Part shown: positions 33,896-61,634 of the stretch, in pieces | How the letters are laid out: each line of letters begins with the position of its first letter | Numbering within the stretch: the first letter of the stretch is position 1 | IMG/VR virus record: IMGVR_UViG_3300029267_004179 | Location: 40,020-104,019 of that record | Source: a virus | Reading direction: 5' to 3' (one strand) | Length of the DNA stretch: 64,000 nucleotides | Position numbers and translations under genes: made by a program | The notes under the pieces: model-generated | The model's database searches: none | What the model was told of the DNA's origin: nothing | Seen by the model: the letters and a program-made list of their open reading frames with translations, nothing else

Positions 33896-33942
33896 TGGAT
33901 GTCTTATAGCTGTGAATGTTTCAGATCGGAATGGAGGGTAAA

Positions 33943-34860
33943 ATGAAGAGAATCAGAAGAACTCAGGTGATGGAGAAGTTTGATCTTTTTGAAAGAGGGG
34001 TGCTTATTACCTTGGACACGAGATGTTGGGGAGCATCAGCCAAGGTGGATGACCTGACGATGAAAGGCCTTTTGAAGGAAGATAAGGCTATGTTAGCTGA
34101 TGAGATAGTTGCAGTTCAATCTCTTGTGCCTGACAAGTCAAAGCTTGCTTACATATGGCATGTCCGTGACGAGGCAAGGCGATTTGCCCAAACCAATTCG
34201 ATGCCTTCAACTATTCGTGGTCACATGTTTATTCCGAAGGATATGATTGAGTATGTTGACCATGGGCTGGCTGACCGGGAAAGAAGATTCTGGATGGGTG
34301 TGGATGAATTTCTGTTGGAATATGAAGGGCTGAGACTGAAGAAGCAAATTGAAAGCCCAGACTTGTATGATCAGTCAAAATATCCTGATGCAAATAGGAT
34401 GCGACAGCGGTTCAAGTTCAGATGGACATTCCGGATGTTTGATGTGCCAAGTTCTGAAACAGGGTTATTATCGCCGGAAATGTACAAGGCTGAAGTCAAA
34501 AAATTCAAGCAGGATATGGTTGATGCCAGAGACAGTATCATTTCCATAATCTCAAAAGAGTTTTTGGAAAGGATTGATTCTTTGAGGAAGCAGTGCAGCG
34601 GTGATAAGATTAGCACAGCAACTGTTGACGGGCTGAATAATTTTCTTGAAAAGTTTGATAATGTTTGGGGCGGATTCTTTGCTCATAAGCAGCTCAAGAG
34701 CATGATCAAGGATGTTAAAGCATACATGGCCGGAACAGAAGCAGATATGCTCCGGTATGATGAATCATTCAGGTCAATGGTTGGGAAGAAAATGGCTGAA
34801 GTTGGGAAGGACTTCAAAGCTGCCGGTGGTGCCCGTATCGGCAGAAAGCTGGACATATGA
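33943..34860 (+). CDS. DUF3150-like helical protein
   Basis: WGAS.K, G..FIP, F...Y, YP......RF.F.W pattern; ends RKLDI. Confidence 0.5.
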   Translation: MKRIRRTQVMEKFDLFERGVLITLDTRCWGASAKVDDLTMKGLLKEDKAMLADEIVAVQSLVPDKSKLAYIWHVRDEARRFAQTNSMPSTIRGHMFIPKDMIEYVDHGLADRERRFWMGVDEFLLEYEGLRLKKQIESPDLYDQSKYPDANRMRQRFKFRWTFRMFDVPSSETGLLSPEMYKAEVKKFKQDMVDARDSIISIISKEFLERIDSLRKQCSGDKISTATVDGLNNFLEKFDNVWGGFFAHKQLKSMIKDVKAYMAGTEADMLRYDESFRSMVGKKMAEVGKDFKAAGGARIGRKLDI

Positions 34861-36128
34861 GTGCGATGAAACCAGTTGTTCCTGGATTGGATAGGATGAT
34901 CTATAAGATAGCCCAATTCTGGATCAAATTCATTCCGAACCGGTCCTGTTTAGAGTTTGAGGATTTGGTTCAGGAGTGCTATCTGGAGCATGTTAAGGCA
35001 CAGAAAAGGTTTGACGAGTCAAAAGGGGTTAAATATACCACCTATCTTTATAAGGCTTTGTGGTGGCGGTGTTCAGCTATAGCCAAAACAGAGCTGAAAT
35101 ATAAAAATAGGGAGTTTGACAACCCATTGCCTCAGAAACCTTCTGTGCCTGAGGATGATTATCTTGTTTATGAGGGCATTTGGGCATTATCACTTCTTAG
35201 CAAGTCCTTTGCCGACATGATAATTAACGGTATTCCTGACACGCTTTTTAAACATCTTCGTCAGCATGCTGAGGATATCAAGGAAAGGAATGGCTGGAAG
35301 AATGGGTTTAGGACTTTTAGACTAAATAAGACTATTGTTGAAAGATTTTTTGGAATATCTATCAGCAAACTGAGGCACTGTTACTATAATTATAATAGAG
35401 ATGATTATGAAGTTAACTTTTTAACAATGGAGGGGTTGAAAATGGAAGAAAAAAGATTAAAGGGTTTTGCCAGCGCAGTTGGAATTTCATGGGATGATTC
35501 TGTGGACATGCAAGAACAGATTTTAGATGCCATAGATGATATGGGTGAGAAGGAGTGGAAGGAACTTCCTGAAAACATCCGTGCCTGGTCGAATAAGAAA
35601 AACAAAGAGGCTGCCGCCGCCGCAAAGGCAAGCAAGCCGACAAAAGCCAAGGACAAAGATGAGCTGAAAAAGGCCAAAGACGGCGCCAAGGAAAAGGCTG
35701 AAAAGAAAAAGGCTGTTAAAAAGCAGTCAAAGGAATATCCTACCAGATTTAAAGAGGGCACAAATGGCCATCAAATCACTGCGTTTGTTGAGGAAGCTGG
35801 CAGTGATGGGATCAGCATCACTTCTCTTATCAAGAAATGTGAAAAGGCAAAGGTGAACAGCCCTAATGTTTCAGGAAGGGTGCGGCATGTGATGCGTATG
35901 TGCACAACGATTGAAGTTGATCCACATTGCGGTCTTCTGCGTAAAGATAATGATTTATTCTTTTGGGTTGGCCCGAAGTCTGAAACTGATGCCGAGAAGC
36001 CGGCAAAACCGGCAAAGAAAGAAAAGAAAGAAGAGAAAAAACCGGCAAAGAAAGAAAAGAAAGAAAAGAAAGAAGAGAAAAAACCGGCAAAGAAAGAAAA
36101 GAAAACGAAAAAATTCAAAAAGAAGTAA
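34857..36128 (+). CDS. Sigma-70 region-2-like protein read in frame into a Lys-rich DNA-binding protein (internal start at 35442)
   Basis: EFEDLVQE.Y......RFD.SKG.KY.TY.Y; internal GGAGG RBS plus ATG at 35442; C-terminal KPAKKEKKEEK repeats. Confidence 0.7.
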   Translation: MSAMKPVVPGLDRMIYKIAQFWIKFIPNRSCLEFEDLVQECYLEHVKAQKRFDESKGVKYTTYLYKALWWRCSAIAKTELKYKNREFDNPLPQKPSVPEDDYLVYEGIWALSLLSKSFADMIINGIPDTLFKHLRQHAEDIKERNGWKNGFRTFRLNKTIVERFFGISISKLRHCYYNYNRDDYEVNFLTMEGLKMEEKRLKGFASAVGISWDDSVDMQEQILDAIDDMGEKEWKELPENIRAWSNKKNKEAAAAAKASKPTKAKDKDELKKAKDGAKEKAEKKKAVKKQSKEYPTRFKEGTNGHQITAFVEEAGSDGISITSLIKKCEKAKVNSPNVSGRVRHVMRMCTTIEVDPHCGLLRKDNDLFFWVGPKSETDAEKPAKPAKKEKKEEKKPAKKEKKEKKEEKKPAKKEKKTKKFKKK

Positions 36129-36138
36129 CAACTATGTT

Positions 36139-36188
36139 AAGGCCCACCAAGGGGATGAGTTGAGACTCCCTTTGGTGGGCCTTTTTTT
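36139..36188 (+). terminator. Intrinsic terminator
   Basis: AAGGCCCACCAAGGGGA/TCCCTTTGGTGGGCCTT plus a T-run. Confidence 0.85.
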
Positions 36189-36342: not shown

Positions 36343-37386
36343 ATGGAGGATGATATGGATGATAAATATAGCATGAAGAAAATAATTATACTTGGAGCAG
36401 GACTTGCAGGATCAGTTGCATATAATGCTTTGTCTTCGATGGCTCCTGTTGTTTACGAAGCAAAGTCAGAGGATAGGTCTGGGCTAAATGAACATCATGC
36501 TGTGATGAGGTTCAGGAACACAGATATTGGGAAGTATCTTGGGTGTGAGATGGTCCCGGTTTGTGCTACTAAGTCTGTGTTCAGGGATGGACAGCTATTT
36601 GATGTGGCAACTATAGCTGATAACAATGAGTATTCCCTGAAATGTTATGGGTCTTTAGCAGACAGGAGTTTGCATTCGCTTGGAAGGGTTGAAAGGTATA
36701 TAGCTTGTGTAAGGCCTATGTCTGGGCAAATTGTTGTATATGATGCAAAAGTTGAAGAGGTTTTTAAAATAGAAGGAGTGTGCGGCATGATGTTTAGTAG
36801 CCAAGGAGATGTCAACTTGGCAGCATCAGAGAATAGGCTGAGGTATGACATTTGCATTAGCACTTTGCCTTTGCCTGTTATTCTTAGGATATGCGGCATA
36901 AATCATCACATGAAGTTTAAATCGAAACCTATCACTGTCAGAACTTGTTACTTGGATTTTGAATCTTCAGTCCATCAAACTGTATACTTTCCATCTCATG
37001 AATTTCATGCGTATCGTGCTACACTTCAAAACAGCAGATTAATTGTAGAATTTGATGGCAAGCTTGATTCTCCGATAGATTCTTGTGTTGTGGATAAAGA
37101 AACATTGGAGGTAATGAAGATATTTGGCCTTGGTAGTATACAGAGTTGGGGATCAGATACAAAAGTACAGCCGATGGGCAAAATTGTTCCTGTTGATGAT
37201 GATTCCAGAAGGGCAGCAATAATGGAGTTAACAGATATGTACAATATTTATTCTCTTGGTAGGTATGCCACATGGCGTCCATTGAGGGCAGATCACCTTG
37301 TTAATGATATTGCAAAAATCCAAAGGATGATAAATGTATCTGAGAAGAAAAAGAAGTATTATGAAAAGTTATCCGGTAGTCTATAA
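36343..37386 (+). CDS. FAD-dependent oxidoreductase (UDP-galactopyranose mutase/PPO-like fold)
   Basis: IILGAGLAG..VYEA Rossmann motif; YD..ISTLPLP; SLGRYATWR. Confidence 0.8.
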   Translation: MEDDMDDKYSMKKIIILGAGLAGSVAYNALSSMAPVVYEAKSEDRSGLNEHHAVMRFRNTDIGKYLGCEMVPVCATKSVFRDGQLFDVATIADNNEYSLKCYGSLADRSLHSLGRVERYIACVRPMSGQIVVYDAKVEEVFKIEGVCGMMFSSQGDVNLAASENRLRYDICISTLPLPVILRICGINHHMKFKSKPITVRTCYLDFESSVHQTVYFPSHEFHAYRATLQNSRLIVEFDGKLDSPIDSCVVDKETLEVMKIFGLGSIQSWGSDTKVQPMGKIVPVDDDSRRAAIMELTDMYNIYSLGRYATWRPLRADHLVNDIAKIQRMINVSEKKKKYYEKLSGSL

Positions 37387-37421
37387 TTAATTAGACAGAT
37401 TAAACTATTAGAGGAGGGAAG

Positions 37422-38198
37422 ATGAAGGTACATCTACTCAATTACACAAATGAGGCAAAGGACTTGCTTATTTTTAGCAAACGCACAAGGCATATGGCAA
37501 ATGCAGACGCACTTGAGAAAGTGAAGAGCATGACAGAAGCTGAGAAGGACAAAGAACTTGATTATGTTTTCAACACAATTGGCAGCAGTTGGGAATTTGT
37601 CTCCTATACTTTTTTGATTGAGGACGTCACCAGGGCGTTTACTCATCAGCTGGTAAGGCATAGGGTTGGGACGGCGTTTGCACAACAGGCAATGAGGGTG
37701 GCAAGGATGGAAGACTTTGGCTATCTTGTGCCTCCTAAGTTTAGTTTAGCTGCTGTTGAGTCTTATTCTAACATTATGAGCAATATTCAGGAAGGATACG
37801 ATGCCCTTCTTGTGGAGTTTGATGCTGATCAGCAAGATGCCAGAGGAGTACTCCCAACAAATATTCATACAAACATTTTGTTCAAGGTCAATTTAAGAGC
37901 TATTGCTGATATTTCTCATATTCGGCTTTGTATTAGAGCACAAGGGGAGTTTCAGAATGTCGCTTTTAGGATGAAAAAGTTGATTGAATCAGTTCATCCT
38001 TGGGCAGGAAGAGTACTTGGCCCTGAGTGTATAGTGAATTGGAGATGTGCTTTCCCGAAGTATAAACAGTGTCCTATTAAGGAGATGCATCTGTGGCTGA
38101 ATGGTCCTGCGGATGAAGAGATTGCTGAAATGAATTTTCAGTGGGAGTCAATTACAGGGTACGACCCTCAGCCAGATATAGTTAAATCATGGGAATAG
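37422..38198 (+). CDS. thyX: Flavin-dependent thymidylate synthase ThyX
   Basis: EF..YTF.IE.VTR.FTHQLVRHR, QQAMR (variant of SxR), DARGVLP and R.C.RAQ.E. Confidence 0.88.
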   Translation: MKVHLLNYTNEAKDLLIFSKRTRHMANADALEKVKSMTEAEKDKELDYVFNTIGSSWEFVSYTFLIEDVTRAFTHQLVRHRVGTAFAQQAMRVARMEDFGYLVPPKFSLAAVESYSNIMSNIQEGYDALLVEFDADQQDARGVLPTNIHTNILFKVNLRAIADISHIRLCIRAQGEFQNVAFRMKKLIESVHPWAGRVLGPECIVNWRCAFPKYKQCPIKEMHLWLNGPADEEIAEMNFQWESITGYDPQPDIVKSWE

Positions 38199-38208
38199 TA
38201 GGTATGAT

Positions 38209-38907
38209 GTGGCAAATCAAAAGTTAAGGCATGAAGAATTGCTCGCAGCACGGCACTCAAGATTTTCAGGGAAGAGTGTTAAAGAGTATATTAATGATCA
38301 GCTGGGTGTTCCTGGCAAATCAAGTTTAATCACTGATGAGTCTTTCGAAGAAGCAAGGGAGCAATGTGCTGGAATTAGGAATGGCACTCTTGTTATGCTT
38401 GATGGGGTTGTTTATACAAGGGAAGAGTATTCTGAAAAAGTAAAGGCAGAAAGAAGGGAAAGAAGGAGAGCAAAAAGAAGAAGGAGAACAGAAAGAAGGA
38501 TGATGACAGATTCCCCTTCTTACAGTGATTCTGGAAGGACGATGGCTGATAAAAGTAATGCACAAGGAAATAGATTGCCTATAGGACATTCTCAATCCAG
38601 GTCTTATATTGAATTTGAAATAGTGTCTATTTTGAGTCAAACAGATAAATCTTATTATGTTATGTTCAATAGGAACACTTCTGCTTATATAGCAAAAAGC
38701 CAATCAATATATGATATGAATAAGCCAAATAGGATCAAGATCAAACCATGGCTTGTTCACAAGGCAGAACTTGTTGTAAGAGCAAGCAAGCAAATAATCA
38801 ACCCTGTGACTGATTCACCTACAGTTGTTGAAAAACATAAGCTTAAACAGGAGCCAAAGGAAAGATGGGAAAAACAGAGAAGATCGAAAAGGAAAATAGA
38901 CATATGA
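38209..38907 (+). CDS. Hypothetical basic protein
   Basis: 232 aa with an Arg-rich linker; ends RKIDI. Confidence 0.6.
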   Translation: MANQKLRHEELLAARHSRFSGKSVKEYINDQLGVPGKSSLITDESFEEAREQCAGIRNGTLVMLDGVVYTREEYSEKVKAERRERRRAKRRRRTERRMMTDSPSYSDSGRTMADKSNAQGNRLPIGHSQSRSYIEFEIVSILSQTDKSYYVMFNRNTSAYIAKSQSIYDMNKPNRIKIKPWLVHKAELVVRASKQIINPVTDSPTVVEKHKLKQEPKERWEKQRRSKRKIDI

Positions 38908-39254
38908 ACAACCATTTCTTTCAAGGGGATGTAGAAGAGACGGATGCAATGATAAAGAAGATATTTGATGACTCCTTGAGAATGATGCTTGAAAAGAATA
39001 GAAGCCGTGGTGACTGTTGGAGAGGAGTTGGCCTCAAAGGTGCTTTTTTAGAGATTAGAGCTTCATTTATGAGATTGAAGAATCTTGCTTGGTATGGGTC
39101 AGCTCCTGTGTTGCATGGTGATGAAGCTGTGCTTGAGTATAAAAAGGAACTGTTGAATGTTTTGGTTGATTTGCGCTGCTTTGCTGTTCTTGGTGAGATG
39201 TCTGTTCTTACAGACAATTGGGAAGGTGATGATGATATTGATTCTGAACTATGA
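38904..39254 (+). CDS. DUF1599 / nucleotide-modification-associated domain protein
   Basis: KN..RGD.W...G.KG....I.....RLKNL...L.DL..FA pattern; start adjusted from 38865. Confidence 0.7.
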   Translation: MNNHFFQGDVEETDAMIKKIFDDSLRMMLEKNRSRGDCWRGVGLKGAFLEIRASFMRLKNLAWYGSAPVLHGDEAVLEYKKELLNVLVDLRCFAVLGEMSVLTDNWEGDDDIDSEL

Positions 39255-39272
39255 TTTGAAGGAGTATTCAAT

Positions 39273-40325
39273 ATGGATGACTATCGATCTTATAAAAATG
39301 ACAAGGTTGTCAGGTTTGTTGATTCACTTAAACACAGCTGGAGGATATTTCCACCATCACTTCAGATAGGCATAACTGATTCCTGTTTTAATAAATGCCC
39401 TATGTGTGGGCATTGGAGGAGAAAGAAGAAATACAGCCTTAACACGGAGAGGCTTATTAGGTTTCTTGAAATGGGGAAGAAGTTGGGGCTTGAATCTGTG
39501 GGTTATAGTGGAGGTGATCCACTTGCATATGCCAAAATAAATGATGTTATGAAATGGCATATTGGCAACAATGTGTCTTTCGGCATAGTCACTGCAGGGT
39601 ATGTACCTTACTGTGTTGAATATAGCCTTTTGAGGTGTGCAAGTTGGGTCAGAGTCAGCCTTGATGCTGTTGGTGAAGAAAGGTATAGGAAATTTAGAGG
39701 GTCTGTTGCATTTTCGGATGTTGACAGGTCTATTAATGACATGCTGGATGCCAGGGTAAGGCTTGGTGTTGGAATAACCTTGCATTCAGGCAACTCTGAT
39801 TATGTTGGTGAAGTGCTTGACTATTGCAAATCAAAAGGGATAGAAGAAGTAAGAGTCTGGGTTGTAAGAAGGCATTCAAAGATGGACATGTCTTTTAAAC
39901 AGAGGATGAAGCTTGCTTCAACACTTGCTAAGTATTTGGAAGATGATTACTATTCAATCACAGACACCAACTTTTCTACTACCATCGACACATTGACATC
40001 AGATAATATTGATGTGATAGGCTTTGACCGGTGCTATGCATGTTTGTATCAGCTGTTCATAGATTCTGATGGCAGTATCTATGCTTGCTGTACTGCTGCA
40101 GGAGACACTGAATCTAAAAGCAGAATGGAGCCGTTTTCTAACATATATTTTGATATGCCGATTGTTAGTAGTCTTGGTTGGGAGAGGATTGCAAAGAAGG
40201 TCCGGGCATTTCACTCAAAGGAGTATAGTGATCTTCCTGATGTTTGCAAAGATGAATGTATAGTCAGACATCGCATAGCTAATAACATAGCCATGAAGAG
40301 CTGGCACAGACAGGATTTTCAATAA
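39273..40325 (+). CDS. Radical SAM enzyme with SPASM/twitch domain
   Basis: CFNKCPMC, SGGDP and RVSLDA; C-terminal C....L.IDSDG..YACC..C..C. Confidence 0.92.
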   Translation: MDDYRSYKNDKVVRFVDSLKHSWRIFPPSLQIGITDSCFNKCPMCGHWRRKKKYSLNTERLIRFLEMGKKLGLESVGYSGGDPLAYAKINDVMKWHIGNNVSFGIVTAGYVPYCVEYSLLRCASWVRVSLDAVGEERYRKFRGSVAFSDVDRSINDMLDARVRLGVGITLHSGNSDYVGEVLDYCKSKGIEEVRVWVVRRHSKMDMSFKQRMKLASTLAKYLEDDYYSITDTNFSTTIDTLTSDNIDVIGFDRCYACLYQLFIDSDGSIYACCTAAGDTESKSRMEPFSNIYFDMPIVSSLGWERIAKKVRAFHSKEYSDLPDVCKDECIVRHRIANNIAMKSWHRQDFQ

Positions 40326-41122
40326 TGAATGAAATCTATGATAGCCCTGAAACAGGATTTGTGTCTGCTACAAGATCATTGCTATTATGCAGGAAACAAT
40401 ATGGCTCTATGTATCATTGTAGGCTGACTCCAAACCACAACTATGCGTTTGAAGATGAAATATTTGATAGGAGCTGGGGTGAATATAAGGAGAAGTATAA
40501 AGGTGGTAGGCTCATCAGTTGGGGTAGGTTTTTAATTGAAGCTGTTTTTCCTGATCATTTGTATATTGAAAATGGCAGGTCATTGATCAACTTGATAAAT
40601 GATAAGAGGTTCAATGATGAGCCATCAGCTACAAAGAAGGGTACATTTCATAGTCATATTGGCCGGATGTGCAGGCCAAGGGAAGTGTTTGATGACACTG
40701 AATATGTTGGGTATCTTGATTACACATTGGATAGATGGTCAAGAGGGAATCATAGATCATATCCTCACTTCTTCTTTGACTGTGAGTCGCCTGAATGGAT
40801 GTTTAGGGAGCTTTTTGTGAATCCAAACCAAATAAGGTCTGGAAGAGTTGCAAATAGTTGTACTTCAAATATTGCTTTTAGATGGGATAGTAAATCTGAG
40901 AAAGCATATATATATCAGATTTTGAAGCACACTCAATGGAGTCATCTGTATGGAGATTTTTGCGGAACTGCTTCATTTGCAAGAGCATTTTGTAGTGAGC
41001 TTTCTATACCTATGCCCAGCTGCAATATAGTTATATTTGCAGTGTCTGCAACTATGGACCGCCCAAAACAAGCCAAGATGATTGTACATGATTTTGATGA
41101 AAGGTATTTACAAAATGACTAA
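40325..41122 (+). CDS. Diverged thymidylate-synthase-fold protein (possible pyrimidine-modifying enzyme)
   Basis: SC...I.FR, then HLYGDF and a helix-strand arrangement aligning by eye to TS PC..QF..G.PFN; the canonical RSxD motif is absent. Confidence 0.5.
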   Translation: MNEIYDSPETGFVSATRSLLLCRKQYGSMYHCRLTPNHNYAFEDEIFDRSWGEYKEKYKGGRLISWGRFLIEAVFPDHLYIENGRSLINLINDKRFNDEPSATKKGTFHSHIGRMCRPREVFDDTEYVGYLDYTLDRWSRGNHRSYPHFFFDCESPEWMFRELFVNPNQIRSGRVANSCTSNIAFRWDSKSEKAYIYQILKHTQWSHLYGDFCGTASFARAFCSELSIPMPSCNIVIFAVSATMDRPKQAKMIVHDFDERYLQND

Positions 41123-41501
41123 TAATCAGTTTACAGTAGCTGTAGATTTTGATGGCGTTATAAATAATTATAGCCGATATAAAGGCAAAGGTGTATTTGA
41201 AGAGCCTGTGCCTGGAGTTGTTGAAGCATTTAGAACTATGAAGGCTGCAGGTTGGACTATAATAATTAATACAACAAGGTCGGAAACCTGGCTTATTGAG
41301 GAATATTGCAAGAAACATGGAATTTTGTTTGACTACATAAACCATAACCCTGCTAACAATGTGCTACATTTGTCTCCTACAAAAGTCATAGCAGATGTGT
41401 ATGTAGATGACAGGAATGTAAGGTTTGATGGCAATTGGTGTAAGGCTATAGATGAAATAAGGAATTTTAAGCCTTGGTATAGGAGGAAAGATGAGGAATA
41501 A
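41115..41501 (+). CDS. HAD-superfamily phosphatase
   Basis: VAVDFDGVI, INTTR and K..ADVYVDDR. Confidence 0.9.
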   Translation: MTNNQFTVAVDFDGVINNYSRYKGKGVFEEPVPGVVEAFRTMKAAGWTIIINTTRSETWLIEEYCKKHGILFDYINHNPANNVLHLSPTKVIADVYVDDRNVRFDGNWCKAIDEIRNFKPWYRRKDEE

Positions 41502-44500
41502 TCAGTGGTGCCATTTGCATTTACATACTCAATATTCTGTTCTTGATGGATACGGATCAGCGGAACAATATGCTGAGAGGGCAAAAGAGATAGGCTTTAC
41601 CCATATGGCTATTACTGATCATGGCAATGTGGATGGAGCAATACAGTTTCAAAAGGCTTGTGAGGCTAATGATATAACTCCTATTATTGGTTGTGAGGCA
41701 TATATTGTTCCTGATATGTCCAACCGTAGTAAAGAGAAAAGATATCACATTTCATTGTTCGCCATGAATAGTAATGGTTGGCAAAATATTCTCAAGATGC
41801 TTACTGTTGCGAACATGCAAGGCTTTTATTATAGGCCAAGGATTGATCCTGAGCTATTGCTTGAGCACTGCGACGGAGTACTTGTCTCAACTGCTTGTTG
41901 CTATGGTTATTTAAGAATGCCTAATGGGGCTGATCTTATTAAGGCGCTTAATGAAGTGACGGAAGTTGTGCTTGAAGTTATGCCTGTTGATATGAAGGAG
42001 CAAAGAGAAGTTAACAGATGGTGTCTTGACTTGTCCGAATCCACTGGTATCCCAATCATAGCCACTAATGATTGCCATTATATTCTTAAAGACCAAAGCA
42101 AACTTCAGGAAACACTTCTTGCTGTGCAAAGGAAAGTCAAATGGAATGACCCGAACAGATGGAAATTCGATATAGATGACTTATACTTAAAGACTGCTGA
42201 TGAGATGGTTCCAGGCTTGGTTAAACAAGGAGTAGAAAGGGGCTTGGCAGAGCAAGTATTGAGGAATACAATGCTCATAGCTGAGAAATGCAGTTTCAGA
42301 ATAGAACAAGTGCCTGTTACTTTGCCTGATATCCACATCCCAGGCTATGAAGAACTACCTGAAGATGACCAGCTGACACATGTTACTTTAGATGGCCTCA
42401 ATAGACTATCAGAAGTTCATAGCTATATTGATGATGATATTGATTCCTACTATGATAGGGTTGAAGATGAGCTTTATCATATCATCAATCTTGGTTTTTC
42501 CAGATATTTTTTGATAGTTTGGGAGCTGATTGACTGGTGCAAGAAAAACAACATACTTACTGGGCCGGGAAGAGGTAGTGTAGGTGGCAGTCTTGTTGCT
42601 TATTGTCTTGGCATTACTGCTGTTGATCCTATTAAGTATGGACTTGTATTCACAAGGTTCATTTCACCTGCAAGAATAGATTTGCCGGATATAGATATGG
42701 ATTTCGAAGATAGGCATAGAGGGAAGATCAGGAAGCATCTTGAGTATAAGTATGGCAAATACAATGTTATAGGTTTGTCTACCTTTGCGAAAATGAATGG
42801 TAGGTCGTGTTTAAGGGATGTGGCAAGAGTATTTGATGTTCCATTAGTCGATGTAGGGGCTGCTGCAAAATCTATAGTTGTTAGATCAGTTGGTGATTTT
42901 AGATCATCTTTTACTATCACAGATGCGTTTGATACTTTTGAAGATGGTAAGAAATTTAAAAAGAAGTATCCAGAAGTGACAAGGATATCTATAGCTATGG
43001 AGGGTCAAATCCGTGGGACAGGCAAACATGCTGCTGCTATGTGTGTTTCAGCTAATGATGTAAGATCAGGTGTGCATAATAGTCTTTCCTATAGATCAAA
43101 AGAACTTCTTGCAAATTGGGGCAAGGAAGATGCCGAGTATATGGGGCTGATGAAGCTTGATGTGCTTGGGCTAAATGCTCTTACAGTGTTGGCTGAGTCA
43201 ATAAGCCTTGTTAAGGATAGACATGGCATAGAAGTTGATCTTGAGACTATACCTTTGGATGATGAGAAGGTTTATTCAGAGTTTTCAAGAGGCAATACAG
43301 TTGGTGTGTTCCAGTTTGCTGGCCAGGGAGCAATTAAACTGTGCCGAGAAATTGGAGTGGAGAATTTTGACGAACTTGTAGCTGTAAATGCTTTGAATAG
43401 GCCTGGTCCTTTGAGGTCAGGAATGACTACTGATTATACAAATATCAAACATGGGAAGAAGAAAAAGCCAAATCTTCATCCCATAATGAATAGGATAACA
43501 GAAAACACTCAAGGCATGGTGATATATCAAGAGCAGATTATGTTTATTATTTCAGAACTTGCTGGGTTGCCTTGGAGAACTGCGGATGTTGTTCGGAAAG
43601 TAATATCCAAAGGAAAAGGTGAAGAGCAGTTCATGAAATTTAAGGATATGTTTGTTGAGGGATGTGTGAATAAAGGTACTATATCAAGGAAGGAAGCAGA
43701 AAAGGCTTTCAAATCTTATAAACATGCCGGATCATACATGTTCAACAAATCTCATGCAGTTGAATACAGCCTTATTGCTTACTGGGAAGCATGGTTCAAA
43801 ACTCATTATCCGGTAGAATATATGGTTGGAATATTATCTTATGGCCCAACTCATAAAGATAAAAAGCATATTCATGTTAATGAAGCCAAAAGGCTTGGAG
43901 TTAAGCTTGCACTACCTAACATAAACAAATCTATGGCAAAGTTATGGACAGCGGATGAAGAGGGCAATTTGAGGATACCACTTTGTGAAATTAAAGGCAT
44001 CGGTCCTGCTGCTGCAAATGTTATTGTGTCTGAAAGAAAAAAGAATGGTGATTATACATCAAAAAATAATTTTGAGTCAAGGGTTGAAAAGAGGAGATGT
44101 AATAAAAGGGTAAAAGAGCTGCTTGATAAGGTCGGTGTTTGGGAAGAAGATAGTGATGCACTCCTTGATGATAAAAGGCTTGAGGAATTATCTCTTTATT
44201 TTGATTTTGACCTTTCTAATGATCCTATGTTCAGATATAGGAAAGCAGTCAAAAAGATTTCAGAGCATGTAGACTTGGTCAAGCTTAAAGGTGTCAGCAC
44301 CAAACAGGTCAAGGAGAAGAGTTTTTATTTTGGATATATAGCAAGTATCAAGTATGGGTATAAGGAAAAAGTAGGGCAAAACAAGAAAGATGATGCTGGC
44401 CTTGGTGGCGTGTATGCCTATTTTGAGGATAGCACTAATTCAACTATGTTGACTTTTAATCCAGAGCTATACAAGAATAGAAAGGATGAGATAGAACATT

Positions 44501-45216
44501 GTGCTGAGAGGTGGGCTCTTGTCAGGGCAAATTCGCCTTTCGGAACAGACAGCCTTTACTGCAATGAAATCTGGTTTGCTGATGATATTTTATCTGGAAA
44601 ATTGGATGATTCAGGGATAGCTTTGGCAGATGAATATGATTACAGCAAATCAGATTTGGTAGTAGATGGGGTTGCTTTATCCGACTGTCAAGCTTGTCAG
44701 TTTAGGCAGGAGTGTAAAGCTCCTGTTTATCCTACCTATGGAGATGTCAATGCAATGATAATTGGTGAGGCTCCAGGCAAAGATGAGGACAGAGTTGGCA
44801 AAGGGTTTGTTGGCGGCAGCGGTAACTTATTGTTTGATAAGAATCTGCACAAGATTGGTGTTAGAAGGGAGCACTGCCATATAACAAATGTGAATAAGTG
44901 TTGGCCGAGTAAATCAAGGACTCCGAAGAAAACTCAGGTGAATAAATGCAGGAAATGGCTTGACAGAGAAATTGAGATAGTAAAGCCATTTGTTATACTT
45001 GCACTTGGTAATACATGCATGAAGTATTTCCTTGGAGAAGATTCTGGCATTATGGCCAAGAATGCATCTACTGAATGGAATGATAGGTATAATTGCTGGA
45101 TATGTTGGGGCATTCATCCTGCTTCTGTTCTCAGGTCACCAGAAAATAGAACAATGTTCAAACAGGCATTGGACAATTTTGCTCATGTGTTTAGCACCAT
45201 AGGGTTTGGTTTATAA
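41491..45216 (+). CDS. dnaE: DNA polymerase III alpha (PHP + Pol) fused to a C-terminal family-4 uracil-DNA glycosylase
   Basis: HLHLHT.YS.LDG, TDHG, GRGS, PDIDMDF, KLDVLGL and FNKSH; C-terminal CQAC, GEAPG..ED, FVG.SG, TNV.KC.P and HPA. Confidence 0.95.
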   Translation: MRNNQWCHLHLHTQYSVLDGYGSAEQYAERAKEIGFTHMAITDHGNVDGAIQFQKACEANDITPIIGCEAYIVPDMSNRSKEKRYHISLFAMNSNGWQNILKMLTVANMQGFYYRPRIDPELLLEHCDGVLVSTACCYGYLRMPNGADLIKALNEVTEVVLEVMPVDMKEQREVNRWCLDLSESTGIPIIATNDCHYILKDQSKLQETLLAVQRKVKWNDPNRWKFDIDDLYLKTADEMVPGLVKQGVERGLAEQVLRNTMLIAEKCSFRIEQVPVTLPDIHIPGYEELPEDDQLTHVTLDGLNRLSEVHSYIDDDIDSYYDRVEDELYHIINLGFSRYFLIVWELIDWCKKNNILTGPGRGSVGGSLVAYCLGITAVDPIKYGLVFTRFISPARIDLPDIDMDFEDRHRGKIRKHLEYKYGKYNVIGLSTFAKMNGRSCLRDVARVFDVPLVDVGAAAKSIVVRSVGDFRSSFTITDAFDTFEDGKKFKKKYPEVTRISIAMEGQIRGTGKHAAAMCVSANDVRSGVHNSLSYRSKELLANWGKEDAEYMGLMKLDVLGLNALTVLAESISLVKDRHGIEVDLETIPLDDEKVYSEFSRGNTVGVFQFAGQGAIKLCREIGVENFDELVAVNALNRPGPLRSGMTTDYTNIKHGKKKKPNLHPIMNRITENTQGMVIYQEQIMFIISELAGLPWRTADVVRKVISKGKGEEQFMKFKDMFVEGCVNKGTISRKEAEKAFKSYKHAGSYMFNKSHAVEYSLIAYWEAWFKTHYPVEYMVGILSYGPTHKDKKHIHVNEAKRLGVKLALPNINKSMAKLWTADEEGNLRIPLCEIKGIGPAAANVIVSERKKNGDYTSKNNFESRVEKRRCNKRVKELLDKVGVWEEDSDALLDDKRLEELSLYFDFDLSNDPMFRYRKAVKKISEHVDLVKLKGVSTKQVKEKSFYFGYIASIKYGYKEKVGQNKKDDAGLGGVYAYFEDSTNSTMLTFNPELYKNRKDEIEHCAERWALVRANSPFGTDSLYCNEIWFADDILSGKLDDSGIALADEYDYSKSDLVVDGVALSDCQACQFRQECKAPVYPTYGDVNAMIIGEAPGKDEDRVGKGFVGGSGNLLFDKNLHKIGVRREHCHITNVNKCWPSKSRTPKKTQVNKCRKWLDREIEIVKPFVILALGNTCMKYFLGEDSGIMAKNASTEWNDRYNCWICWGIHPASVLRSPENRTMFKQALDNFAHVFSTIGFGL

Positions 45217-45256
45217 GGAAGGTATAACTTTTTACTATAATATAGCAGAGGTAGTT

Positions 45257-45811
45257 ATGACAAAATATGACGATCTAACTTATATTGATAAAAATAATCT
45301 TGATGATGAGTGCTGCATTCTTCCTGCTCTTTTTGATTATTGGTCAGAAAGAGAATGTGAATTTAGAGAAGAAGTTGATATTGCTAAAGATAAGCTTGAA
45401 GTTGTTAAGGCACAAGTTGATCTTTATTATAGATCGATGTCTTTAAAAGATATCGAAGAAAAAAGGGGTCAGAGCATAACTTCAAAAACAGAAAGTGCTA
45501 TCAAGTCTTTGATTGTGGATGACGATAGGGTAAAGGCTGCTCATGACCACTATCATGAAGTGAGGAAAAAGCATAGGGTGTTTACAAGACTTCTGAAGAG
45601 GATTGAAGTTAAGAAATGGGGGCTTGATAACCTTGTTAAGCTTCATGGTCAAGGGTATTTTTCAGAAATTAAAGGTGGAGTCAAAGAGAGATCAATTATA
45701 GCTATGAAGAAAAGGCTTGCAGATGAAATAAAAAGGGATTCAGAGAAAAACGAATCTAAATGGTCAAAAAAGGTTAAAAGAATCAGAAAAAGAAAGGAGA
45801 AAAGATCATGA
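45257..45811 (+). CDS. UvsY-like recombination mediator
   Basis: Helical; TE.AIKS.I..D motif; upstream of SSB and RecA. Start adjusted from 45206. Confidence 0.5.
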   Translation: MTKYDDLTYIDKNNLDDECCILPALFDYWSERECEFREEVDIAKDKLEVVKAQVDLYYRSMSLKDIEEKRGQSITSKTESAIKSLIVDDDRVKAAHDHYHEVRKKHRVFTRLLKRIEVKKWGLDNLVKLHGQGYFSEIKGGVKERSIIAMKKRLADEIKRDSEKNESKWSKKVKRIRKRKEKRS

Positions 45812-46926
45812 GTAAAAGGAAATGGAGCAAGAAAGGTGTGACTCAGAGTAATCTGAAAAAGGTGCATGAATCTGCCGGCGATAAGTGGACTCCTGTAATT
45901 GTTGGGTATCTGAACAGCGATATAAAAATGTTTGTGCCGAAAGAGGGTGAGAATAAGATCAGAATTATTCAGCCTCTTGAAGTGGATGATCTTGGGTACT
46001 ATGGCAGGGAAGTTCATTTTCATCGTGGCGTCGGGCCGATGGACCATTACTATATCTGTTTGAGAAGGATGAGGTCGCAGAGATGTTTTATCTGTGAACT
46101 TCAAACAAGCGAACTGTGGGATGAAGACCCAGAACTTGCAAAAACCTTCTATCCTGACACCCGTGTTTTGATGTGGGTTCTGAATCTGAACAGTGATGAT
46201 CCTGATGAGCCACTTCTTTGGAGCTGTGCCAAGTCGCTGGCAGAAAGCATTCTTGGCCAGAGTCATAAGAAAGAAACGGAAGTGTACACTGATGTTTCTC
46301 ATCCTACTGAAGGTGTGCCTGTATTCTTTGACCGTAAAGGGAAGGGGCTGAAAACTAAGTATCAGAATGTTCAATTGGGGGAAGAGCAGACAGAACTGGA
46401 GGAATCACTTCTGGATGAGATCGATTATTTTGACAATCTGATCATTTGGCCTGAATATGATCAGGTAAAGGCTGCTTATTACGGAGATGAAGTTGAAGAA
46501 GATGAAACTTCTGAGCATGATGATATCCCAGAAAGTGTTGAAAGCTCTGAAGAAGATCAACCGGATGAGGATTGTTTCCAAAAGAAGTTTGATGAGTATG
46601 AAGAATGTGATGACTGTAAATGGCGTGATGACTGCAAGCCTAAAGAAGAAGATCAACCGGATGAGGATTGTTTCCAAAAGAAGTTTGATGAGTATGAAGA
46701 ATGTGATGACTGTAAATGGCGTGATGACTGCAAGCCTAAAAAGCAGAAGAAAGAGCCTAAAAAGCAGAAGAAAGAGGCGAAGAAGGAAAAGAAAGAGGCG
46801 AATAAGGAAAAGAAGGAAAAGAAAGAGGCGAAGAAGGGAAAGAAGTCGGACGGCGCTGACAAGAAAAAGAAAAGCATAAAGGAGAAGCTGAAGAAGCAGA
46901 TTGCCGACAGAAAGAAGAAAAAATAA
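45808..46926 (+). CDS. gp32-like single-stranded DNA-binding protein with duplicated Cys4 motif and Lys-rich tail
   Basis: F.PKEG.N.IRI, H..C..C.ICE, D...P.EG and R.GKG..TKY. Confidence 0.75.
   Translation: MSKRKWSKKGVTQSNLKKVHESAGDKWTPVIVGYLNSDIKMFVPKEGENKIRIIQPLEVDDLGYYGREVHFHRGVGPMDHYYICLRRMRSQRCFICELQTSELWDEDPELAKTFYPDTRVLMWVLNLNSDDPDEPLLWSCAKSLAESILGQSHKKETEVYTDVSHPTEGVPVFFDRKGKGLKTKYQNVQLGEEQTELEESLLDEIDYFDNLIIWPEYDQVKAAYYGDEVEEDETSEHDDIPESVESSEEDQPDEDCFQKKFDEYEECDDCKWRDDCKPKEEDQPDEDCFQKKFDEYEECDDCKWRDDCKPKKQKKEPKKQKKEAKKEKKEANKEKKEKKEAKKGKKSDGADKKKKSIKEKLKKQIADRKKKK
46549..46740 (+). repeat. Perfect 96-bp tandem duplication (2 copies) within the SSB gene
   Basis: EEDQPDEDCFQKKFDEYEECDDCKWRDDCKPK twice, identical at DNA level. 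Confidence 0.95.
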
Positions 46927-59323: not shown

Positions 59324-59400
59324 CGGGGTGTGGCCCAGCTTGGTAGGGCGCTTGCCTTGGGAGCAAGAAGTCGTTGGTTCAAATCCAACCATCCCGACCA
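59324..59400 (+). tRNA. tRNA-Pro(TGG)
   Basis: Full cloverleaf; anticodon arm CTTGC-CTTGGGA-GCAAG; GTTCAAATC T-loop; encoded CCA. Confidence 0.95.
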
Positions 59401-59409
59401 TTAAAATAC

Positions 59410-59480
59410 GCACCGAAGACCATGGGGTCAAACTGGTTCCAGACCAGTAGAATAGGGTTCGATTCCTTATCGGTGAGCTA
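59410..59480 (+). tRNA. Atypical or degenerate tRNA-Trp(CCA)-like element
   Basis: ACTGG-TTCCAGA-CCAGT anticodon arm; GGTTCGATTCC T-arm; minimal D-arm; 1:72 mismatch; ends CTA rather than CCA. Confidence 0.6.
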
Positions 59481-59510
59481 AGAGAAGTAGAGTGTAGAAA
59501 AGGAGATGAT

Positions 59511-59762
59511 ATGTTAAAGGTTTATATCTCAAAAGATTATAGGTGAAACCCTATTGGTGTAATATTGTCCAAGAATCAGGCTATGGCTGAAATAGCCTTT
59601 GTTGCTATGAAAATAGGACATCATATCATAGAAGAAATTGACCTTACAGATGAGGATGTCGGGGTTAATGGTACTGTATTCTTGTTGAGTTCGGTTGAAA
59701 AAAAGATTGTAGGTTCGTCCGGCAAAACAATAGAATACCGTCACTGGCATAGAGGCATATGA
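59511..59762 (+). pseudogene. 83-codon gene interrupted by an in-frame TGA (59544)
   Basis: AAGGAG RBS; MLKVYISKDYR*NPIGVILSKNQ.. in frame with ORF-track 59565-59762. Confidence 0.55.
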
Positions 59763-59772
59763 GGAGAACTGC

Positions 59773-60357
59773 ATGGCTGAAAATAAAGTTGAAGAAATAT
59801 TATCCGAGCTATCTTTAACAGGGGAAGCTGTTTTGGATAATTTAGATAAAAGTCCTGAATTTATTACCTGGAAATGGTTGGATATTACCTACCAGTCAAT
59901 AGTAAAGTGGCGTAACATTCGGTTTCATAATGGCAATGATCATAAGATGCAAAATTGTGCTTTGTGCCAGGAGGCTGATAATATATTTGCCCGTCCACTA
60001 TATAGCCTTGATAAAGATGCCGAGCACCATCTTTGTGATTATTGCCCACTTGGTGTTTGCATTGCTGAATGTGATGATGTTGGATCACCATACTGGGAAT
60101 GGAATGATTATTTATATTCTTTTGAGCATGGTTTACACTCTGCGAAGGAAGATAAGAGTTTGGGGTTGGCTGATAACATGATTTATATGTTGTTTTTTCT
60201 TCACTATTCGATAAAATTGAAATTATATATCAAATATAAAATATCATCTTATGCTTATTTTCAAGATAATGTAGAACCGGAGTTATATGATTATGCCTTG
60301 GTTTCTTGGTGGGCATTAATGGGATGTAGTTTAGGAATGGGAGTATATAACGGATAA
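59773..60357 (+). CDS. Cys-rich hypothetical protein (paralog of 56705-57283)
   Basis: Same motif series as 56705-57283. Confidence 0.7.
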   Translation: MAENKVEEILSELSLTGEAVLDNLDKSPEFITWKWLDITYQSIVKWRNIRFHNGNDHKMQNCALCQEADNIFARPLYSLDKDAEHHLCDYCPLGVCIAECDDVGSPYWEWNDYLYSFEHGLHSAKEDKSLGLADNMIYMLFFLHYSIKLKLYIKYKISSYAYFQDNVEPELYDYALVSWWALMGCSLGMGVYNG

Positions 60358-60409
60358 TTGGAAGAACTTTAGTGTGAATTCAATCATTTGTACTATTTAA
60401 GGAGGAGTA

Positions 60410-60661
60410 ATGGAAAAACTTGCAAAAGCGGTAAAACTTGCGGTGGAAATAAAGGAAGAGTCATTTGATAAGGAAATGGCCGAAGAAAATAAAGACAAAA
60501 AATTCTTTGATTTTAACAAATGCTACAAAATCTCTTTGAGGGAAGCTGCAGACAAGGCTGCTGAGAAAGTTGGGTTTGATGAGAGGGGAGCATTTCCGGT
60601 TTATCTTCTGTTAGAATATTGCTGGAATGATATTCTTGATTGGGCAAAAAAGTTCGATTAA
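60410..60661 (+). CDS. Hypothetical protein
   Basis: AAGGAGG RBS. Confidence 0.7.
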   Translation: MEKLAKAVKLAVEIKEESFDKEMAEENKDKKFFDFNKCYKISLREAADKAAEKVGFDERGAFPVYLLLEYCWNDILDWAKKFD

Positions 60662-60713
60662 GAGTTGCATAAAGAGACTATAATAGATAAAGAACTATAA
60701 AATATTTTAGGGA

Positions 60714-61540
60714 GAAAAAAGATGGCATGTATAAATAGAATTGGGACAAGCACAAGAAGATCAGACTTGTCTATACATGCCATCTTTTTTCGGCCCTTTT
60801 ACGTCGGAAAGCCTGTCATTATTATTCCCTTTGCCATAAGTGTATTATTCTTCGCAATGGGTAAATGCGTCCGGCGTTTGGGATATTCATTGACCCCGGT
60901 TTTTGCCAATTGGGCCAGGAGCCCAATTCTAAAATTTATTCTTACTGCCCGGTAGTTTTTACTGACCGGGCAGAACTGCTGTTCTGTTGGACACTTATTG
61001 GACCGACGAGAATAGTGGTGACTCTACTACGCCATAAAAAAAGTATATAATTAGTATGGAGGACAGAAGCCAAATGAATGGACTTCTTAAAATTGAAAGT
61101 TGGCGTATTGTGTGTGTGGCCGATACTTGCTAACATAATCATCGGCTTCATGTAGCACCTCAAGGGCATAGTCCCGAGTCTCTGTTGAAGAAGAGTAAGA
61201 TCATTGACTATGCCCTTGAGTCGGATAATTGTGAAGTTTCCGGTTGCTGTGGGAATATTGCTGATGAACTACCTGTACCCGCCGCACCGGTCGGTATTAA
61301 ACCCTCGCTCGGCACCACTCGGCATTGGTCTCGATTATTTTCACCGACTGAAAGTAGTTACTGTAACGGTGATTGATTCGACTTATAGATTGTGCTGTAC
61401 CGGGCCAGGAGAGACATTGTCATTGTAGATTGGCATTAACCCTTTCCCCTCCCCGGCAGACTTACTTTTGGTGTTCCAGTTATGTATAGTGATGTCGGTG
61501 GTGCTGGTATTAACACCTTGGTTCTGCCGGGGGTTTTTGA
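60714..61540 (+). ncRNA. Candidate large structured non-coding RNA (~830 nt)
   Basis: No credible ORF; many nested stems (20-bp 60714-33/60772-91; 15-bp 61159-73/61206-20; 10-bp 61451-60/61523-32); G-U pairs favour the + strand. Confidence 0.65.
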
Positions 61541-61556
61541 GGTTGAGTAGTTATCT

Positions 61557-61634
61557 GTTCCCGTAGTCCAAAAAGGCAAAGGACACGAGGCTTTCAATCT
61601 CGGTACGTGGGTTCAAGTCCCACCGGGAACACCA
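61557..61634 (+). tRNA. tRNA-Glu(TTC)
   Basis: GTTCCCG/CGGGAAC acceptor; CGAGG-CTTTCAA-TCTCG; GGTTCAAGTCC; encoded CCA. Confidence 0.93.

Follow-up and report, generated by a model that had tools for sequence, protein, structure and literature searches.

The window analysed here, by which we mean the whole stretch of 64,000 nucleotides, covers bases 40020-104019, the last 64 kb, of the 104,019-bp IMG/VR phage record IMGVR_UViG_3300029267_004179 (rated complete by CheckV), and carries a cassette of seven open reading frames (ORFs) that, by a reading to which we give somewhat better than an even chance, makes a modified (hypermodified) pyrimidine for the phage's own DNA, ORF5 and ORF6 being lineage-specific tailoring enzymes. 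The likely product is derived from thymidine or 5-hydroxymethyl-uracil and bears a side chain resembling a sugar. The seven ORFs, all on the plus strand and partly overlapping, occupy positions 36343-41501 and are followed directly by the gene for a DNA polymerase with a uracil-DNA glycosylase (UDG) domain. The genes of the cassette and the polymerase are as follows (aa, amino acids).

36343..37386, plus strand: ORF1, 347 aa, a predicted compact flavoprotein of the UDP-galactopyranose mutase (UGM) / amine-oxidase fold class; core gene.
37422..38198, plus strand: ORF2, 258 aa, a divergent ThyX (flavin-dependent thymidylate synthase family); core gene.
38209..38907, plus strand: ORF3, 232 aa, a strongly basic orphan protein with an Arg/Lys stretch of low complexity; it starts with GTG, and its ribosome-binding site is weak.
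38865..39254, plus strand: ORF4, 129 aa from the first ATG, although the ATG at 38904, giving 116 aa, is the likelier start; a small all-helical domain with a KN..RGD motif.
39273..40325, plus strand: ORF5, 350 aa, a radical SAM enzyme with a SPASM/twitch-like C-terminal domain; accessory and lineage-specific.
40325..41122, plus strand: ORF6, 265 aa, a member of an orphan family with a predicted thymidylate synthase (TS) fold and an invariant Cys179; accessory.
41082..41501, plus strand: ORF7, 139 aa from a TTG, although the ATG at 41115, giving 128 aa, is the likelier start; a putative HAD-superfamily phosphatase; core gene.
41491..45216, plus strand: DnaE-type DNA polymerase with a C-terminal family-4-type UDG domain, coupled to ORF7.

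The cassette was compared with 22 IMG/VR loci found with the radical SAM family and one more found with the ORF6 family (the related loci carry L numbers below); for the ORF6 homologs P0005, P0008 and P0009, the genomic context was obtained indirectly through IMG/VR loci. In the loci of all close homologs, the radical SAM gene lies between a ThyX gene of the same subfamily and the DnaE gene, with the single exception of the rearranged contig L024, and this ThyX-to-DnaE slot is kept across about 20 viral contigs. Co-conservation of the cluster in related phages, on which an earlier note on this DNA had made its proposal depend beforehand, is thus what we found. The ORF1 homolog usually stands just upstream of ThyX, and the slot always holds a HAD protein and a small helical domain. 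Its variable content consists of a short-chain dehydrogenase (SDR), a protein like gp60 of Serratia phage Hera (annotated as glyoxalase/dioxygenase), the TS-fold protein, the radical SAM enzyme and a few unassigned families. ORF6 is present in seven loci, where it usually adjoins the radical SAM gene; L008 carries ORF6 without radical SAM, L009 carries radical SAM without ORF6, and the PB1-like phages carry neither. The accessory set differs between lineages: some have SDR and a VOC-like protein, others ORF6, and in either case radical SAM may be present or absent. The conserved core is the flavoprotein, the divergent ThyX, the HAD protein and the helical domain. The TS-fold and radical SAM proteins, which the earlier note had named as the makers of the modified nucleotide, find no support in that role, being both accessory and separable, as seen in L009, L008 and the PB1-like phages. 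Accessory genes that vary by lineage are, we infer, common in hypermodification clusters under arms-race selection.

The block is one variant of a cassette that is widespread among phages. Of cultured phages, 361 have a full-length homolog of ORF1, and most of these belong to Pbunavirus. The gene order ORF1-like protein, ThyX, HAD fusion (gp52, gp57), exonuclease and DnaE is shared by Pseudomonas phage DL68 and Serratia phage Hera, and Hera has, in addition, SDR and a VOC-like protein. For two members of Pbunavirus, F8 and 14-1, a preprint of 2025 (Yee et al., PMC12191111) describes virion DNA that resists enzymes with TG-containing sites and in which new nucleosides of 362 and 390 Da replace about one quarter of the thymidines; these thymidine derivatives are described there as sugar-alcohol and aldopentose derivatives, and genes are not assigned. 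By mass arithmetic, 362 and 390 Da agree with 5-hydroxymethyl-dU joined to a tetritol or a pentose with the loss of water. In the literature after this preprint we found no paper assigning genes to the thymidine modification of Pbunavirus. The presence of a UGM-like flavoenzyme, a phosphatase and sugar-tailoring enzymes beside a C5-activating enzyme fits the Pbunavirus chemistry, as circumstantial evidence. Taken together, the co-conserved cluster and the hypermodified thymidine of F8 and 14-1, which share the core, speak for the overall idea of the earlier note, an undescribed base-modification pathway feeding the replicase, but not for the division of labour that it had drawn up among the enzymes.

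The folds of ORF1 and ORF4 were taken from ESM Atlas models, and those of ORF5 and ORF6 from AlphaFold2 (AF2) models. The N-terminal GxGxxG motif of ORF1 (residues 18-23) is invariant in its family, and the protein matches phrog_4828, a family of unknown function, at 6e-49; no match was obtained in Pfam. The Atlas model of ORF1 gave TM scores of 0.76-0.82 to Amino_oxidase/NAD_binding_8/GLF clusters (amine oxidase, protoporphyrinogen oxidase, UGM). A search of PDB sequences with the single sequence returned nothing useful; the family profile (17 members) alone gave a match, the best being UGM 4dsg (E 5.8e-5), and this match lies outside the Rossmann dinucleotide-binding motif. From model and profile, ORF1 appears to be a UGM/amine-oxidase-like flavoprotein, closest to UGM.

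ORF2 matches Pfam Thy1 (PF02511) at 1.2e-34, with 120.2 bits against a cut-off of 24.8, and scores 86.4 bits with the NCBI equivalog TIGR02170, just below its cut-off of 87.9. Upon alignment to T. maritima ThyX, the RHR motif, R90, R147 and R174 are retained, S88 is replaced by Ala and the active-site H53 by Phe, and the complete motif RHRxxxxxxxSxR is absent. The Ala and Phe changes are common to the whole phage ThyX subfamily, in all the related loci as well as in the PB1-like and Hera phages. The supply of dTMP by ThyX, assumed in the earlier note, is therefore not established for this subfamily, which is without the canonical Ser and His and falls just under the equivalog cut-off.

For ORF6, neither single-sequence nor profile searches gave a match in Pfam or among PDB sequences, no member of its 33-member family has a Pfam match, and no match to PF00303 was found anywhere in the genome at E<=10. 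Comparison by hhalign with an 80-sequence ThyA alignment gave a probability of 0.1%, which is not significant, and tblastn found no match in cultured phages. After an exhaustive profile search of 1.84 billion representatives, the ORF6 family was found to comprise 39 clusters, with no bridge to canonical TS. The AF2 model (pLDDT 84, pTM 0.86), on the other hand, was matched by Foldseek with a probability of 1.00 to TS-fold entries, including AfhB, MilA and many ThyA, and the comparison by VIA gave Z 13.8 for the AfhB dCMP hydroxylase, 13.3 for MilA and about 12.4 for ThyA, values that are effectively tied, with a root-mean-square deviation of about 3.2 Å over 190-200 residues. As judged from the model, ORF6 has a predicted TS fold without sequence similarity to TS. 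Cys179 is the sole invariant column in the 33-member family and, in a permissive and statistically non-significant hhalign alignment, falls on C146 of E. coli TS. In the cassettes of SDR/VOC type, an unassigned family of proteins of about 260 aa adjoins the radical SAM gene (L017:9135-9962, L018:3112-3879, L020:6074-6859 and L022:9208-9999); hhalign detected no relationship of the ORF6 family to these proteins, nor to the 343-aa and 143-aa proteins of L009 or to ORF3.

The radical SAM assignment of ORF5 is given by its match to PF04055 (1.5e-12, 48.5 bits against a cut-off of 29.5) and by the cluster motif CxxxCxxC at residues 38-45 (C38, C42, C45). Within the family, C45, C254, C272, C273, C325 and C329 are invariant and C38 and C42 nearly so, and the presence of five conserved C-terminal Cys suggests an auxiliary Fe-S cluster. 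The SPASM model PF13186 gave 18.8 bits for ORF5, below its cut-off of 21.5, and 22.9 bits for the homolog in L002, and many members of the family carry PF13186. The family forms 45 clusters among 5.8 billion proteins, all of them metagenomic; in the search of cultured phages, four weak matches only were obtained, all to uncultured records. With the AF2 model (pLDDT 92.8), the best matches by VIA were DesII, at Z 24.9 over 334 residues (full length), and BlsE, at Z 24.0, followed at a lower level by SkfB (23.2), MoaA (20.8) and viperins (about 19). The BlsE equivalog TIGR04466 gave 24.9 bits against a cut-off of 400, leaving ORF5 outside that group. A role of ORF5 as activase of an anaerobic ribonucleotide reductase (RNR) was considered and rejected on the basis of the genome, in which no class I/II RNR was found (NrdD was not searched), the SPASM-like C-terminus and the weak match to NrdG.

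ORF4 has no Pfam match, no match to PDB sequences in single-sequence and profile searches and no tblastn match in cultured phages. The label 'DUF1599-like' that it had received in the earlier note is poorly supported, since a search of the genome with DUF1599 (PF07659) at E<=10 was negative, as was that of ORF4 at E<=0.01, and two faint leads were all that we obtained, an Atlas neighbour cluster with 11% DUF1599 members and a match of E=0.05 in the fused homolog of L007. The domain occurs in natural fusions, as HAD-ORF4 in L002/L009, HAD-ORF4-SDR in L007/L027, ORF4-SDR in L008, ORF4-radical SAM in P0041 and NT5C-type HAD-ORF4 in P0093. Because these fusions join an ORF4-like domain to HAD, SDR and radical SAM proteins, the helical domain is the hub of the cassette, and because HAD and ORF4 are fused in L002/L009 and L007/L027, ORF7 plus ORF4 are the split form of a core HAD-helical fusion. 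The same domain is traceable in cultured phages: hhalign of the ORF4 family against the C-terminal domain of PB1 gp52 / Hera gp57 gave E 8.6e-5 and a probability of 60% over 84 columns, and the motif KN..(R/Y)G(D/N) is common to both.

ORF7 carries the motif DFDGV near its N-terminus, with the DxD of motif I intact, and matches phrog_1238 at 2.4e-23 and, in NCBIfam, the BT0820-type HAD (6e-12) and HAD-IIIA (2.8e-5) models, both below the equivalog cut-offs; by these motifs and matches it is classed as a HAD superfamily member outside any named subfamily. A direct match of ORF7 to the HAD_PNKP domain of the PB1 gp52 type was not obtained, the correspondence resting on position and on the ORF4 link. 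The 'purging' of the canonical nucleotide, which the earlier note had attributed to the HAD and helical proteins, is not an obvious function for a helical domain that is itself fused to HAD, SDR and radical SAM proteins; the fusions suggest instead that both proteins share their substrate with the tailoring enzymes. ORF3 has no match in Pfam, PHROG or NCBIfam, and none of the related loci has a homolog of it in the same slot. The other assignments in the earlier note, namely ThyX, radical SAM, HAD, the FAD protein and the TS fold, all agree with the profile, motif or structure matches given above.

From these assignments the following sequence of reactions can be proposed. Activation of C5 in a pyrimidine mononucleotide would fall to the divergent ThyX or, in this lineage, to ORF6 as a Cys-dependent TS-fold enzyme, and could give dTMP and/or an intermediate of the 5-hydroxymethyl type. 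The UGM-like flavoenzyme ORF1 would handle a sugar or sugar-phosphate donor, the HAD protein would take the phosphate off the donor or the adduct, and the helical domain might serve as a shared substrate-binding or docking module. The DesII/BlsE-like radical SAM enzyme ORF5 would then remodel the sugar-like side chain, for instance by dehydration, decarboxylation or oxidation, leading to a product that differs from those of the PB1-like phages, and the accessory sets of other lineages would likewise lead to different final bases. The proposal allows the chemistry to take place on free nucleotides or on DNA. In its most specific form, it describes a route without glycosyltransferase or DNA kinase, in which a rewired ThyX/ORF6 acts at C5, the flavoenzyme and the HAD-helical module attach a chain derived from a sugar phosphate, and the radical SAM enzyme remodels this chain into a base not yet seen; this complete scheme we put forward tentatively, as a possibility well short of an even chance.

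The cassette is the sole set of nucleotide-metabolism genes in the 104-kb genome. A profile search of the entire genome gave no PurZ, TGT/DpdA, or GT-A or GT-B glycosyltransferase, extending to all 104 kb what the earlier note had observed in the window, that is, the absence of glycosyltransferase, PurZ and 7-deazaguanine genes; a 7-deazaguanine or PurZ system was rejected as TGT and PurZ are absent from the genome. Among the cassette ORFs and the scanned neighbours, no Pfam or PHROG match to 5-hmU DNA kinase or amino-acid:DNA transferase was noted, although no search dedicated to these enzymes was made. The genome also lacks a deoxynucleoside monophosphate (dNMP) or thymidylate kinase, a trimeric dUTPase, a dCMP deaminase and a class I/II RNR, and tblastn detected no SDR, VOC-like, gp52/gp57, 'family 5' or 'family 6' protein elsewhere in the genome.

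Several observations weigh against a cassette for DNA modification. The link of the core genes to the modification in Pbunavirus is circumstantial, the preprint assigning no genes, and ORF5 and ORF6 are without cultured representative, no product being known for any phage that carries them. Neither a route via pre-replicative modified nucleotides nor a classical glycosylation route has support from the phage's own genes, which include no dNMP kinase, dUTPase or glycosyltransferase, so that a pre-replicative route would have to rely on kinases of the host. With respect to the tailoring enzymes, the fold matches of ORF5 are narrowly spread, RiPP maturases (RiPP, ribosomally synthesized and post-translationally modified peptide) and MoaA standing 2-4 Z below the best, and the ORF6 counterparts of N177, D169 and L143, the residues for base specificity and product, cannot be mapped, as the alignment by eye puts G214 at N177, the hhalign alignment puts D211 at D169, and the two disagree, neither being reliable. 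Finally, short palindromes are strongly avoided: in the whole 104,019-bp genome, CTAG is found 2 times against about 187 expected and CGCG 0 times against about 34 expected, the median observed/expected ratio is 0.66 for 6-mer palindromes against 1.00 for non-palindromes, and eight six-base palindromes are absent. It follows that the genome has been under pressure from Type II restriction, and that a modification, if present, is partial or leaves those sites unprotected, giving no broad protection to the DNA. Such avoidance is compatible with partial, context-limited modification as in Pbunavirus, and it fits canonical DNA as well.

Canonical DNA is what would be expected if the cassette serves ordinary nucleotide-pool management, ThyX making dTMP, the HAD protein acting as nucleotidase or in PNKP-like end repair, and the flavoprotein serving the redox needs of ThyX, with the radical SAM enzyme, the TS-fold protein and ORF3 as passengers. 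ThyX is indeed a clear Pfam member with its key arginines retained, relatives of the HAD protein match the PNKP-phosphatase and NT5C models, the UDG domain of the polymerase fits a phage that excludes uracil from thymine-containing DNA, and the strong avoidance of palindromes suggests DNA that is largely unprotected. Pool management does not explain, however, why five to seven chemically unrelated enzymes stay together in a single slot in about 20 contigs, where they are joined in fusions via the helical domain; a UGM-like flavoenzyme and a DesII/BlsE-like radical SAM enzyme have no part in the standard supply of dTMP, and the cultured relatives with the core genes carry modified T. We consider this explanation unlikely, giving it about one chance in five.

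Slightly less probable still, in our estimate, is that ORF6 and ORF5, possibly together with the core, make a free modified nucleotide or nucleoside outside DNA, following the logic of peptidyl-nucleoside antibiotics, for host takeover or against host defence. MilA, which hydroxymethylates CMP in mildiomycin synthesis, is among the best structural neighbours of ORF6, and BlsE, of blasticidin S synthesis, is among those of ORF5; in the mildiomycin cluster, a TS-fold enzyme stands together with a radical SAM enzyme of BlsE type, which we count in favour of this alternative. The missing phage dNMP kinase, which would take a modified dNMP to the triphosphate, and the avoidance of palindromes, which fits unmodified DNA, point in the same direction. 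The matches of ORF6 within the TS superfamily are, however, tied within about 1.5 Z and do not favour MilA in particular, and the genes lie inside the replication module, in a unit coupled to dnaE. In the cassette and the scanned neighbours we detected no enzyme that forms peptides, no nucleosidase and no glycosyltransferase, and the genome has no GT-A/GT-B protein. Supply or recycling of a folate, pterin or flavin cofactor for ThyX, with the SDR of relatives as pteridine/dihydrofolate reductase and a MoaA-like radical SAM enzyme acting on GTP, is very improbable: the best NCBIfam matches of ORF5 are weak ones of MoaA type, SDRs fill the slot in many relatives and a ThyA-like reaction by ORF6 would be expected to yield dihydrofolate, but this genome has no SDR at all, a Pfam scan limited to the cassette and the genes flanking it showed no GTP cyclohydrolase or other pterin-pathway gene, ORF5 is structurally nearer to DesII/BlsE than to MoaA, and the UGM-like flavoenzyme does not fit.

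The modification cassette that we favour over these alternatives is, as the earlier note had described, one co-oriented and largely coupled unit entering the polymerase, as seen from the seven plus-strand ORFs, the short gaps and overlaps between them and the overlap with dnaE. ORF1 and ThyX are separated by a gap of 35 nt that contains a GAGGAGG ribosome-binding site, ThyX and ORF3 by a gap of 10 nt, and ORF4 and the radical SAM gene by a gap of 18 nt; ORF4, given its start at 38904, overlaps the ORF3 stop in an ATGA, the radical SAM gene overlaps ORF6 by 1 nt, ORF6 overlaps ORF7 by 8 nt, given the ORF7 start at 41115, and ORF7 overlaps DnaE by 11 nt. On its 5' side, the transcription unit is bounded by a strong terminator.

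36139..36185, plus strand: intrinsic terminator, a long GC-rich inverted repeat followed by a T-run, which closes the upstream unit (sigma-like gene).

This terminator was read directly from the sequence; a simple scan did not report it, probably because its loop exceeds the 3-8 bases allowed in the scan. Between the terminator and the cassette lies an AT-rich intergenic stretch, in which one copy of a dispersed element of the AAACTAATA type is found. Just upstream of the cassette, at 33916-36185 of the window, are genes for a DUF3150 protein and a sigma-70 region 2 protein, which are kept there in relatives.

In the polymerase itself, Pfam detected the PHP, DNA_pol3_alpha, finger and HHH_6 domains and, at residues 1085-1229, UDG (1.3e-25), which carries the GEAPG and HPA motifs. 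L009, L013, L019 and L027 likewise have a DnaE-UDG fusion, about 50% identical. The DnaE proteins at L008:11208-15710, L026:11050-16086 and L011:11973-16920 are 1500-1678 aa long and contain an internal insertion, possibly an intein; that of L011 consists of two adjacent ORFs. Right after DnaE, at 45206-46926 of the window, follow ORFs of 201 aa and 372 aa without Pfam match, which keep this position in relatives and may encode replication accessory proteins. The wider surroundings are those of a tailed phage, with DnaB-like helicase, SNF2 helicase, primase, RecA-like, FEN-like and SbcCD-like proteins, terminase and portal, and when cultured phages were searched for DNA nearly identical to the block, no match was obtained. 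Three tRNA genes (Pro-TGG, Trp-CCA and Glu-TTC) are located in the late region, at 59324-61634 of the window.

Pbunaviruses are among the phages most widely used in therapy against Pseudomonas aeruginosa, and the hypermodification of their DNA is a recent find, for which the cassette provides the obvious candidate genes. The metagenomic variants separate the core (flavoprotein, ThyX, HAD protein and helical domain) from the swappable modules (SDR, VOC-like, radical SAM and TS-fold proteins), and this separation supplies a concrete list of genes for knock-outs and heterologous expression. If the proposal is true, it would represent a new biosynthetic logic for DNA hypermodification and would give functions to a new family of TS-fold enzymes and a new family of radical SAM enzymes, both of which bear on restriction evasion, on modification-dependent defences (END nucleases) and on the enzymatic synthesis of modified DNA.

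With respect to known enzymes, ORF1 resembles the UGM / flavin amine-oxidase family in the GxGxxG motif, the overall fold and the match of its profile to UGM, whereas the matched enzymes are 100-150 residues longer. The best full-length structural matches to the ORF5 model, DesII (TDP-4-amino-4,6-dideoxyglucose deaminase) and BlsE (cytosylglucuronate decarboxylase), both work on a sugar linked to a nucleotide or nucleobase; the identity is 13% and the likeness is at the level of fold only, with SkfB, SuiB, anSME and MoaA close behind. ORF6 shares its predicted fold with the TS-fold enzymes acting on pyrimidine C5, such as ThyA, T4 gp42 and MilA, and also AfhB of HY126 and RB69 gp48, which are flavin-dependent 5-hydroxy-dCMP synthases (PMC13326640). 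The invariant Cys of ORF6 may sit at the start of the strand on which TS bears its nucleophile, but the RSxD and N177 regions are not confidently alignable, and the ORF6 family occurs only in the cassette.

Thymidine hypermodification in ViI, M6 and SP10 (Lee et al. 2018; PMC8989533) likewise involves clustered genes and a TS-fold enzyme, M6 having also radical SAM and flavin enzymes. In these systems, a recognisable dUMP hydroxymethylase comes first, and the DNA is acted on by a 5-hmU DNA kinase and by amino-acid:DNA transferases (PMC8989533), whereas the cassette in the window is centred on ThyX and the UGM-like flavoenzyme, and its ORF6 has no sequence similarity to TS. The cassette is thus distinct from the ViI/M6-type thymidine, the T4 or RB69 cytosine, the 7-deazaguanine and the PurZ pathways. 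The nearest phages with measured DNA chemistry are those of Pbunavirus (PB1-like: F8, 14-1, DL68), in which the gene order is like that of the window, with the flavoprotein, a ThyX of the same subfamily, the HAD protein plus helical domain, and DnaE, at identities of about 27-36% for ORF1, ThyX and DnaE. They differ from the window in having no radical SAM and no TS-fold protein, in the fusion of HAD and helical domain as gp52, and in a DnaE without UDG domain that is preceded by a separate exonuclease. By its genes and their order, the cassette in the window belongs to the ThyX-to-DnaE cassette family of the PB1-like phages, to which it adds the accessory pair ORF5 and ORF6, and the HAD protein and the helical domain are encoded here by separate genes.

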